Below, in pieces: positions 16,879-20,651 of a DNA stretch of 64,000 bases. Positions within the stretch are counted from its first letter, which is position 1, and every line of letters begins with the position of its first letter. The translations under genes and the position numbers were made by a program. The stretch lies in the NCBI RefSeq assembly GCF_056746865.1, contig NZ_CM163382.1. One strand, given 5' to 3'. The notes under the pieces were generated by a model. That model had not been told where the DNA came from and did not search any database. It saw only the letters and a list, made by a program, of their open reading frames with translations.

Positions 16879-17531
16879 TGACTTGATAATGTCTCCGCAT
16901 TACACAGACCATGGCGAATTGCCAGGTGAGTCAGCTCAACATCGCCATGAATGTTTAGTTTACTGAACATACGATAGCGGTAGCTGTTCACCGTTTTCGG
17001 ACTGAGATTGAGCTGTTCTGAGATCTCATTGACCTTCTGGCCCTTGGTGATCATCAGCATAATCTGCAATTCACGTTCAGACAAACTGGCAAATGGGCTT
17101 TCTGTTTTTTCTGGTTCGATCTGGCTTAACGCCATTTGTTGAGCGATGTCAGAAGCAATGTAACGCTGCCCTGAATAGACAGAACGAATCGCACTCACGA
17201 CTTCCTGCGGAGCCGCGCCTTTGCTGAGGTAGCCCGCAGCACCGGCCTGCATGACTTTCGCTGGTAAAGGGTTTTCTGTATGGACGGTAAGCATGATGAT
17301 TTTGACATCAGCTGTGGAACGCGCGATTTTACGCGTCGCCTCAAGACCGCCAATGCCCGGCATACTCATGTCCATTAGCACCACGTCAACGGCATTTGCC
17401 CGACACCACTTAACGGCGTCTTCACCGCACGATGCCTCACCGACGACTTTTATACCCTTTATATCTTCCAGAATGCGTCGTATCCCTGCGCGCACCAGTT
17501 CGTGGTCATCAACAAGTAGAACGTTGATCAA
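16875..17531 (-). CDS. uvrY: Response regulator UvrY (partner of BarA)
   Basis: 218 aa [22 protein letters not shown]..., receiver plus LuxR-type HTH; 4 bp overlap with uvrC. Confidence 0.95.
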
Positions 17532-17989
17532 AGGAATATCTCCAGAAATAGGGATAACGCTACTGATAGTTAGTCATTCGTATATTAGCGGTTTTTATTG
17601 CAACTTTGAAACGTTAAAAATGGTGGGTATTCGATTTTTCTCTCGTTTTTGTCAATTCGATTGTCCACAGTTATGGTCACGCCCGTCACCAACGGCTTAC
17701 CGGATCGTTTCACAGTAAGCCCTGCGACGAAATGTGACAAAAATTACCTTTATTCAGCAAAAATGAAAATCAGCCCGCTGAATATGTAACATTAATTAAC
17801 CCGAACAATACGGGCAAAAAACATTCATGATAAAAATATTTATTGGTCATTATATTAACGCATTTAATAGCACCGTTGACGATACGCTCAAAAAACAACC
17901 ACTGCTATTTTTAGCAAAGCTTATGGTATACTCCGCCGCCTTAACATTTTTCACCGCAAATTTTCATTGCAACATGACGAGGAAAATAA

Positions 17990-18214
17990 ATGAGTACGCC
18001 TGATTTTTCTACTGCCGAGAATAATCAAGAACTGGCAAATGAAGTCTCCTGCCTGAAAGCGATGCTGACGCTGATGCTGCAGGCGATGGGACAAGCTGAC
18101 GCGGGCCGCGTGATGTTAAAGATGGAAAAACAGCTTGCGCTGATCGAAGACGAAACCCAGGCTGCAGTATTTTCCAAAACGGTTAAGCAAATTAAACAAG
18201 CCTACCGTCAGTAA
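17990..18214 (+). CDS. yecF: Uncharacterized protein YecF
   Basis: 74 aa [28 protein letters not shown]... Confidence 0.85.
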
Positions 18215-18281
18215 TATAAAACCGGCTGATAGCGTGCCTTTCAGCCGGTTTTTGCATCTGGCACGCAGGACAGAAAAGAGA

Positions 18282-19004
18282 TCAAATTAAGCCAGTAGCG
18301 GCCGCGTAACAGGCAACCTGGGTCTTATTCGGTGCATTGATTTTTTTCTGCATGTTTTTCTGATGGAAATTGACCGTATTCTCAGAGATTGACAAAATCA
18401 TCGCTATCTCTGCTGATGTCTTCCCTTCCGCCGTCCATTTCAAAATTTCTTTTTCGCGCTTGCTGAAATTCATCTCTGGCGTCATCACTATTTCATCATT
18501 TAAACGCATCAGAGCCATCAGACTTTCGCGCACCAGTAACTGCATTTTTAATTGCAGTTCATCACTAAGAATGGGTATTTCGCGCGCGCTGCTACGGGAA
18601 AAGGACAAAAAGCCCAGCGCCCGGTTTGGCAGCATTAAATACTGAGTGACACCGCGGCGTAAACCATGTGCGCGCGCGGCTTCCCATAACGGCTGTGCTT
18701 CGCTGAATAAGTCATCATTCCACATTAAATGGCCCTGACTAAAGTTTTCAGGGTTCAGCACCGGATCAATTGCGAGAAAGTTTTTTGCCTGATAATAACT
18801 AACCCACGCCTCAGGGTAATTGGTGTAGAAAGCCACTTTAGGTCGCGTGAATGGTACCGGGTGGCGAACACATAACGAATAGTAATCGTACTCCAGCTGC
18901 TGAGCCTGAAGCTCTATTTCATGGTAGACCTCTTCTGCGGCCTCCATCCTCTGAAAACGCAACAGCATCGTGCGACGCCAGCTGAAAAAATCCGTATCCT
19001 GCAT
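18282..19004 (-). CDS. sdiA: LuxR-family transcriptional regulator SdiA
   Basis: ORF 18282-19016; start trimmed to MQDTDFFSWRRTMLLRFQRMEAAEEVYHE (240 aa). Confidence 0.93.
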   Translation of the reverse strand: MQDTDFFSWRRTMLLRFQRMEAAEEVYHEIELQAQQLEYDYYSLCVRHPVPFTRPKVAFYTNYPEAWVSYYQAKNFLAIDPVLNPENFSQGHLMWNDDLFSEAQPLWEAARAHGLRRGVTQYLMLPNRALGFLSFSRSSAREIPILSDELQLKMQLLVRESLMALMRLNDEIVMTPEMNFSKREKEILKWTAEGKTSAEIAMILSISENTVNFHQKNMQKKINAPNKTQVACYAAATGLI

Positions 19005-19233
19005 AGTAAACCGCAACGCCCCTGAGAGTGAGTATCATTTATAATGATAATTCAAACTATCACATAAATAAGATTTATATATAATTTATATTATTCAGGC
19101 AATGAATTACTTTTGCAAGCCATCGCATTCTCTTATGTTATTAATGAGTTATGCTGATTTGTTAAGCTGTTTTATCACGCTTGAAATGGCGTCCCGCCCC
19201 GACAGGTGAATCGTCGGGGCTGATTTTTTCTTA

Positions 19234-19986
19234 TTATTGCAGCAGAAACTTCTCGAGGAACTGGCGGGTGCGAGGCTGCTGGGGATCGGCAAATAACGCT
19301 TTTGCTGCCCCCTGCTCGACTATCCGCCCCTGGTCCATAAAAATCGCCCGGTCCGCAACATCCCGGGCAAAGCTCATTTCGTGCGTCACAATCACCATCG
19401 TGCGCTTTTCCTGCGCCAGCTGACGGATGGTGTTCAGGACTTCGCCCACCAGCTCTGGATCCAGCGCCGACGTTGGCTCGTCAAACAAAATCACCTCAGG
19501 ACGCATTGCCAGCGCACGTGCAATCGCAACACGTTGCTGTTGACCGCCAGACAAACGACGTGGATAGCTGGTTTCTTTACCGGCCAGCCCAACTTTCGCC
19601 AACAGCTCGCGAGCGCGCGCCGTGGCCTCTTCTTTCGGTTCGCCTTTGACGATCACCGGCCCTTCAATAATGTTTTCCAGCACCGTACGATGCGGAAACA
19701 AATTAAAGTTCTGGAAGACAAACCCGACGTGCTGACGCAACTGGCGAATCAGCGATTTTTGCTGACTTAATGAACGTGCAGTATCAATAGTGATATCGCC
19801 AACGGTGATAGTTCCCGCTTCCGGTTGTTCCAGCAGATTTATGCTGCGTAGCAACGTGGTTTTGCCGGAACCACTCGGACCGATAATTGCCACCACTTCG
19901 CCAGGCTTTACCTCAAGGTCGATACCGTGCAGCACCGTCTGACCGTGAAATTTTTTCACCAGGTTCTTAACTTCAATGGCACTCAT
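19234..19986 (-). CDS. tcyN: Cystine ABC transporter ATP-binding protein
   Basis: 250 aa ABC ATPase, Walker A GPSGSGKTT, signature LSGGQQQRVAIARAL. Confidence 0.92.
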   Translation of the reverse strand: MSAIEVKNLVKKFHGQTVLHGIDLEVKPGEVVAIIGPSGSGKTTLLRSINLLEQPEAGTITVGDITIDTARSLSQQKSLIRQLRQHVGFVFQNFNLFPHRTVLENIIEGPVIVKGEPKEEATARARELLAKVGLAGKETSYPRRLSGGQQQRVAIARALAMRPEVILFDEPTSALDPELVGEVLNTIRQLAQEKRTMVIVTHEMSFARDVADRAIFMDQGRIVEQGAAKALFADPQQPRTRQFLEKFLLQ

Positions 19987-20651
19987 TTTGGTTCTCTCTC
20001 CTGGCGATTAAGTTGATTCTCAAAATGGTTCTGCAACGTCGATAATACTGTCGCCATGATCCAGTAGATGAGCGAAGCCGCCAGGTACATGGTGAACACC
20101 TCCAGCGTGCGCGAGGTAATCAACTGCGCCTGACGGAACAGCTCCGGCACCTGGATTGTCGCGGCCAGCGACGTATCTTTTACCAGGCTGATAAAGCTGT
20201 TCGACAGCGGCGGCAACGCCACCCGCGCCGCCTGTGGCAAAATCGCGCGACGCATGGTCTGCCACGGCGTCATACCAATACTGGCAGCTGCTTCCCACTG
20301 ACCTTTATCAATAGAAGAAATGGCGGCGCGAAGCGTTTCGGCAGCATAGGCGGCAGTGTTGAGCGACAGACCAATCATTGCTGACGGAATGGGATCTAAT
20401 TCGATACCAAACTGCGGCAGGCCGTAATAAATCATAAACAGTTGTGCGATGAGCGGCGTACCACGAAAAATAGAGATATAAAAACGCGCCAGCCAGCGCA
20501 CGGGCCAGATCGGCGACAGGCGCATCAGCGCGAGAATAAACCCGAGCAGTAAGCCAAAAAACATGCCGCCGATACTGAGTTGCAGCGTATACCCAGCACC
20601 TTTCAGCAGGAACGGCAAGGAATCAATAACCAGTTGTATACTTTCTTGCAT
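19983..20651 (-). CDS. tcyL: Cystine ABC transporter permease
   Basis: 222 aa polar amino-acid ABC permease; 4 bp overlap with tcyN. Confidence 0.92.
   Translation of the reverse strand: MQESIQLVIDSLPFLLKGAGYTLQLSIGGMFFGLLLGFILALMRLSPIWPVRWLARFYISIFRGTPLIAQLFMIYYGLPQFGIELDPIPSAMIGLSLNTAAYAAETLRAAISSIDKGQWEAAASIGMTPWQTMRRAILPQAARVALPPLSNSFISLVKDTSLAATIQVPELFRQAQLITSRTLEVFTMYLAASLIYWIMATVLSTLQNHFENQLNRQEREPK

Follow-up and report, generated by a model that had tools for sequence, protein, structure and literature searches.

The window, i.e. the whole stretch of 64,000 nucleotides that was analysed (NCBI RefSeq assembly GCF_056746865.1, contig NZ_CM163382.1), shows in the region of interest the E. 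coli gene order uvrY - yecF - sdiA - tcyN - tcyL - dcyD. Between sdiA and tcyN lies a hairpin followed by a run of T, oriented as a terminator of the plus strand. An earlier note, made from the letters alone, found this orientation odd, both neighbouring genes being on the minus strand. The features on which the interpretation relies are, in window coordinates:

18282..19004, minus strand: sdiA coding sequence (ATG 19002-19004), divergent from sdsN
19040..19045, plus strand: TATAAT, -10-like hexamer at -12..-7 of the presumed SdsN178 start
19052..19092, plus strand: presumed 5' extension of SdsN178, from the 178-nt isoform length and the common terminator
19080..19085, plus strand: TATAAT, -10-like hexamer upstream of the SdsN137 start, 19093
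19093..19229, plus strand: sdsN gene (SdsN137 isoform), 134/137 identical to MG1655 b4719
19187..19233, minus strand: tcyN 3' UTR, from the base past the stop to the mapped mRNA 3' end
19196..19220, plus strand: terminator stem-loop, 8-bp G+C-rich stem (19196-19203 / 19213-19220) and 9-nt loop
19224..19229, plus strand: T6 run, U-tail of SdsN (annotated sdsN 3' end at 19229)
19234..19986, minus strand: tcyN coding sequence (cystine ABC transporter ATPase), convergent with sdsN

The hairpin and its T-run are as they had been described. The stem arms read GCCCCGAC and GUCGGGGC around the 9-nt loop AGGTGAATC, the 3' arm of the 8-bp stem, opposite GCCCCGAC, being GTCGGGGC. CCCCGAC (19197-19203) pairs with GTCGGGG (19213-19219) and G19196-C19220 makes the eighth pair, so that seven pairs are G-C. 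Downstream of the stem come TGA, then T6, then CTT; this plus-strand tract, UGAUUUUUU, holds 7 U in its first 9 nt, with U6 at 19224-19229. Read in the tcyN sense the order is reversed: A6 precedes the hairpin and GGGACGCCAUUUC comes after it, with a longest U-tract of 3. The U-rich tract that follows the hairpin of an intrinsic terminator is thus absent on the tcyN side, as the earlier note had remarked.

The anomaly of strand is only apparent, because a plus-strand gene had been overlooked. The RefSeq record of MG1655 carries the ncRNA sdsN (b4719) at 1996921-1997057 on the plus strand, with sdiA on one side and tcyN on the other. The comparison with the window is gap-free (window position = MG1655 position - 1977828) and places the 3' end of sdsN exactly on the last T of T6. 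The window gene differs from that of MG1655 by three substitutions, at 19168, 19178 and 19195, and the first 75 nt of SdsN137 are the same as in K-12. Position, strand, hairpin core, U6 tail and the spacing of the -10-like hexamers are also alike, so that both identity and synteny (between sdiA and tcyN, on the plus strand) designate this gene as sdsN. A minus-strand orientation is therefore right for the two protein-coding neighbours, but not for the nearest gene. As sdsN occupies the interval from sdiA to tcyN and is read on the plus strand, a plus-oriented terminator is just what is expected there, and nothing is anomalous. In PGAP-annotated E. coli genomes, only sdiA and tcyN are found under the match, and an Rfam 15 search of 17400-20400, with E-values up to 1, gave no hit; Rfam 15 appears to be without any model recognising SdsN.

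The small RNAs SdsN137, SdsN178 and SdsN124 were reportedly described by Hao, Updegrove, Livingston and Storz in 2016 (Nucleic Acids Res 44:6935). According to reviews and papers, SdsN137 and SdsN178 arise from two RpoS-dependent promoters and have a terminator in common, and the SdsN RNAs are Hfq-dependent and repress narP, nfsA and hmpA; sdsN is an RpoS-dependent gene of the stationary phase. From the length of the longer isoform, 178 nt, and the shared terminator, we infer that SdsN178 starts at 19052. The two TATAAT hexamers are correctly spaced for starts at 19052 and 19093, their RpoS dependence being taken from the literature.

The hexamer at 19040-19045 sits within a promoter block of sdiA that is kept across genera. 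This block (window 19030-19083) precedes the sdiA ATG by about 25-75 nt, reads TTTATGTG(A/T)TAGTT ... TAATAATGATTATC and is found in Salmonella, Citrobacter, Klebsiella, Kluyvera, Leclercia, Enterobacter and Kosakonia; for sdiA it probably acts as core promoter or operator. Since the start of SdsN178 and its -10 hexamer lie inside the block, the transcription of sdsN and that of sdiA may interfere mutually.

An ORF of 35 codons (MNYFCKPSHSLMLL...) is also present within sdsN, at 19102-19209 on the plus strand and 10 nt from the 5' end of SdsN137. A coding role was rejected: the frame is interrupted at codon 8 by a stop in E. albertii and has no ATG in the SCPM strain, another Escherichia species. 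As this ORF is not conserved, the sdsN RNA should be considered non-coding, a dual-function RNA being unlikely.

Folded as plus-sense RNA the hairpin region reaches -16.8 to -17.0 kcal/mol (z -2.5 to -3.1), and as minus-sense RNA -17.6 to -19.0 kcal/mol (z -3.3 to -3.5); z was calculated against dinucleotide shuffles, and both folds are well below the shuffle values. The lower energy of the minus sense (-19.0 kcal/mol) is due to an additional G.U pair, which closes a 7-nt loop. We scanned the window for the terminator motif with a custom pattern—stem of 8 bp or more without mismatches, 6 or more of its pairs being G-C, loop of 3-10 nt, T6 within 4 nt. Four sites were found in the 64 kb, whereas 100 dinucleotide-preserving shuffles had 0.01 on average. 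With about 400 times the expected number, the association of this hairpin with a T-run is no chance match.

The standard promoter/terminator scan, with its loop limit of 8 nt, did not list the sdsN hairpin, and this limit is the only reason for the omission. Together with the silence of Rfam, the omission is what could be put forward for a chance palindrome, or for a repeated element (e.g. REP), having no function in plus-strand termination. Besides the excess over the shuffles, several observations oppose such a reading: the hairpin coincides with the annotated 3' end of an RNA and with mapped termini, its stem displays compensatory substitutions (both detailed below), and the locus is in single copy (median of one place per genome for a 61-mer matched in 5,366 of 5,426 complete E. 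coli genomes), where a REP should be multi-copy. We consider that this explanation can practically be dismissed.

The experimental 3'-end data all come from K-12, whereas the window belongs to a non-K-12 strain, in which the ends are presumably the same. Bar et al. 2023 (TRS), using RNAtag-seq of MG1655 in LB with three libraries, found two termini at the locus. That of the plus strand (peak 1997053-1997062, dominant position 1997056) is "Primary" for sdsN, with a U-tract of 6 and adjusted p of 1.9e-19, 3.5e-51 and 1.8e-46; that of the minus strand (peak 1997013-1997021, dominant position 1997015) is "Primary" for tcyN, with a U-tract of 3. A second, independent RNAtag-seq dataset gives ends at 1997058 (+) and 1997015 (-). 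In the window, 1997056 and 1997058 correspond to 19228 and 19230 on the plus strand, and 1997015 to 19187 on the minus strand. Between these positions, over about 43 nt made up by the hairpin itself, the two convergent transcripts overlap.

The earlier note had envisaged that the hairpin could terminate a divergent transcription coming from near the sdiA promoter, and this is what is observed, since the annotated SdsN stops in the T-run and RNA ends map there in the two datasets. It had also named strand-specific Term-seq as the check, and a lack of plus-strand 3' ends as the result that would speak against termination. RNAtag-seq does display ends on both strands, those of the plus strand at 19228-19230 (K-12), but two Term-seq analyses make no call. 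The curated Term-seq list of Adams et al. 2021 leaves 1996900-1997199 free of 3' ends on both strands and has no entry for sdsN or tcyN; the TRS re-analysis of the Dar and Sorek Term-seq has no end here on either strand, judging from the absence of a row. The direct support thus comes from RNAtag-seq and from the annotation. Adams et al. 2021 place no Rho-dependent region in the tcyN-sdiA interval, which brings slight backing to the Rho-independence of the plus-strand terminator.

On the plus strand we therefore find what defines an intrinsic terminator, i.e. a G+C-rich stem-loop, a U-tract and 3' ends in vivo (K-12 data), and it is very probable that the hairpin and T-run are the Rho-independent terminator of the known sRNA gene sdsN. 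This finding is already known and ordinary. Two promoters, beside or inside the promoter region of sdiA, would start SdsN178 (about 19052) and SdsN137 (19093), and transcription would proceed away from sdiA. The 8-10-bp G+C hairpin would then form in the nascent SdsN while the U6 tract weakens the RNA-DNA hybrid; melting of the U6:dA hybrid would free an RNA ending at about 19229, with a stem-loop and a U tail. Read on the opposite strand, the same palindrome would mark where the tcyN mRNA ends (19187), so that one hairpin would close two convergent units, with a canonical U-tract on the sdsN side only.

The hairpin and U tail are probably also the 3' Hfq-binding module of SdsN. According to PMC9765468, where the SgrS terminator is studied, Hfq-dependent sRNAs typically carry a terminator stem-loop and a U tail. 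SdsN compares with these canonical terminators, of which SgrS is an example, by a G+C stem-loop and U6 at the 3' end of an Hfq-dependent sRNA; it differs from them by a rather long loop (9 nt) and, in the window allele, by a UGA spacer before U6.

The terminator is not the same in all E. coli. In K-12 the stem has 10 bp (19194-19222), because A19195 pairs with U19221; a single A precedes U6 and the energy is -20.7 kcal/mol. By contrast C19195 of the window makes a C.U mismatch and loses this A-U pair, the second from the stem base, which leaves an 8-bp stem, a 3-nt UGA spacer and -16.8 kcal/mol; the window stem is thus 3.9 kcal/mol weaker. C19195 is found in five of the six E. coli alleles that we aligned (the window and four of the other five). 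As this majority has the 8-bp stem, the K-12 reference may make the SdsN terminator look stronger than it is in the species at large. The exact 61-mer allele of the window occurs in 2,377 of the 5,366 matched genomes, and that of K-12 in 519. About 60 of the 5,426 complete genomes are without a match to the 61-mer, a few carry it twice, and in one case it is plasmid-borne.

Six divergent E. coli alleles share an unchanged stem core and T-run, and vary in the loop and on the 5' side of the stem. The T6 run is the same in eight of the nine aligned Escherichia sequences, the exception being E. albertii with GTTTTT. Compensatory double changes are found within Escherichia at 19195.19221 (A-U to U-A) and 19202.19214 (A-U to G-C). 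Stem pairing over the nine sequences amounts to 88.9% in the plus sense and 86.7% in the minus sense, values too close to call. The E. albertii hairpin folds with a much lower energy in the tcyN sense (-22.8 kcal/mol) than in the sdsN sense (-13.1 kcal/mol), because two G.U pairs turn into A.C mismatches in the latter. With this less stable plus-sense hairpin and an interrupted T-run, SdsN termination may be weaker in E. albertii.

On the minus strand, the stop codon of tcyN is at 19234-19236 and the palindrome lies 13 nt beyond. The tcyN 3' UTR holds A6 and the hairpin, whose minus-sense stem has 9 bp, including one G.U, and a 7-nt loop; the mapped mRNA 3' end, 19187, is 7-9 nt beyond the hairpin. 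The other proposal of the earlier note, that of a tcyN terminator devoid of a U-run, is thus at least positionally right. Weak termination at the hairpin, termination assisted by collision, and exonucleolytic trimming could each produce this end.

In the case of trimming, 19187 would be a processing product, longer tcyN transcripts, which run on in the direction of sdiA or are halted farther along, being cut back to the hairpin by exonucleases. The lack of a U-tract beyond the hairpin in the tcyN sense would agree with this, as would the nature of RNAtag-seq, which displays steady-state and not nascent 3' ends. The only nearby minus-strand Rho region of Adams et al. 2021, at 1995939, lies past sdiA, which fits a minus-strand transcription that continues across the locus; on the other hand, the same study has no such region between tcyN and sdiA. 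In addition, overlapping 3' ends of convergent genes have been described in E. coli as genuine Rho-independent bidirectional termination sites. We hold trimming for a serious possibility, somewhat short of an even chance.

The overlapping bidirectional terminators between convergent genes are said to have been described by Ju, Li and Liu in 2019 (Nat Microbiol). The sdsN/tcyN pair resembles this class: the two units are convergent and both 3' ends, 19228-19230 (+) and 19187 (-), lie on either side of one palindrome, the transcripts overlapping by about 43 nt. It differs by its asymmetry, the U-tract being on the sdsN side only, while on the tcyN side A6 comes before the hairpin and no more than U3 after it; besides, one of the partners is an sRNA and not an mRNA. 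The class, defined by SEnd-seq (follow-up bioRxiv 10.1101/2022.10.23.513370), covers hundreds of E. coli genes, and a head-on collision of the sdsN and tcyN polymerases at the hairpin could in this way end both transcripts. However, the sdsN side has all that a canonical intrinsic terminator requires, and no collision is needed for it. Furthermore sdsN is RpoS-dependent and expressed in stationary phase, the expression of tcyN is low, and the model predicts a poor efficiency for weakly expressed pairs. Collision at this hairpin therefore seems unlikely.

A second hairpin of this type is found close by, between yecF (+) and sdiA (-), at about 18218-18253 within 18216-18255 (AAAACCGGCUGA...UCAGCCGGUUUU); it was not listed by the standard scan either. 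TRS gives ends at 1996082/1996083 on the plus strand (window 18254/18255) and a "Primary" end of sdiA at 1996039 (window 18211). As for sdsN/tcyN, one hairpin serves a convergent pair and has 3' ends on both strands, but here an A-run flanks one side and a T-run the opposite one: this is a symmetric, textbook bidirectional intrinsic terminator, whereas that of sdsN/tcyN is asymmetric. The minus-strand Rho-dependent region at 1995939 (Adams et al. 2021; window about 18111) is antisense to yecF and downstream of sdiA, so that some minus-strand transcription must get past the yecF/sdiA hairpin. In the same vicinity, an ORF of 58 codons at 17827-18003 (+) overlaps the start of yecF and is the small protein gene yecU (b4752) of MG1655.

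The age of the hairpin can be approached by comparison with other genera. We scanned one genome per species with a degenerate pattern for the C-terminus of TcyN (TRQFLEKF) and obtained 120 loci, about 80 of which are true tcyN orthologues (about 75 non-Escherichia). A strong G+C hairpin lies 3-16 nt past the tcyN stop in almost every orthologue, with or without sdiA next to it. The A-run before the hairpin, i.e. the T-run in the sdsN sense, is only found in the four Escherichia loci of the scan: the window, E. albertii and two divergent species representatives labelled "E. coli". A recognisable sdsN body, at 78-84% identity, is likewise limited to the three of these loci that come from other genomes. 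Outside Escherichia, nhmmer, blastn and the inspection of the roughly 75 tcyN orthologue loci revealed no sdsN body, the sole match being of about 30 nt (19052-19083). This match was rejected as an sdsN homologue: the alignment is that of the sdiA core-promoter block, TTTATGTG...TAATAATGATTATC.

In the 75 non-Escherichia loci, the better fold is that of the tcyN sense in 45 cases against 30, with a mean difference of -1.7 kcal/mol and 115 G.U pairs against 77 (Wilcoxon p = 0.006, a strand-bias statistic that ignores phylogeny and is obtained from folding windows reaching past the hairpin). A canonical U-run in the tcyN sense is present in several genera without sdiA, namely Pantoea, LSJC7, Pluralibacter UBA7423 and Mixta. 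Across the genera the hairpins have a common position and no obvious likeness of sequence.

These data point to the idea that the hairpin arose as, and mainly is, an element of the tcyN mRNA 3' end—a weak terminator or a block to 3'-to-5' exonucleases—and that its use by sdsN is secondary. Such an origin would complement the role of sdsN terminator, without excluding it. Apart from the post-stop hairpins in loci devoid of sdsN, the strand bias and the tcyN-sense U-runs, this idea is in keeping with the tcyN 3' terminus of K-12, 7 nt beyond the stem, with the additional G.U pair of the minus-sense stem in E. coli and with the preference for the tcyN sense in E. albertii. Arguing the other way, no U-run longer than U3 exists on the minus side in Escherichia, where pair counts do not favour the minus sense either; the bias across genera comes with the reservations given above on phylogeny and on folding windows; and hairpins that share a position without an obvious sequence likeness are not demonstrated homologues. 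On balance we lean slightly towards the ancestral tcyN element.

The hairpin position being widespread and sdsN being restricted to Escherichia among the genomes retrieved, a co-option by a young sRNA is suggested. The stem-loop after tcyN would be an old feature of the tcyN mRNA 3' end in Enterobacteriaceae; the Escherichia lineage would have gained an A-run between the tcyN stop and the hairpin, i.e. a T-run on the other strand; and transcription leaking out of the AT-rich promoter region of sdiA would have been stopped there, the intergenic region becoming a properly terminated sRNA that binds Hfq. The element might now work as an asymmetric two-way terminator. We put forward this scenario, in which the tcyN hairpin predates the sRNA and SdsN was born by co-option, as a tentative one, with chances rather below even.

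What is new in the present analysis is comparative only: sdsN limited to Escherichia against a widespread hairpin, and the weaker 8-bp stem in five of six E. coli alleles. The locus also illustrates that a terminator standing alone and pointing the wrong way between protein-coding genes often reveals an unannotated small RNA; here sdsN was missed by PGAP and Rfam, and only the hand-curated record of K-12 carries it. SdsN ties the stationary phase and RpoS to the stress of nitrogen compounds, via nfsA, hmpA and narP, and its terminator supplies the U tail that Hfq could bind. If the co-option is true, SdsN would be a datable case of the birth of an sRNA from the terminator of a neighbouring gene, a neat but modest case study.
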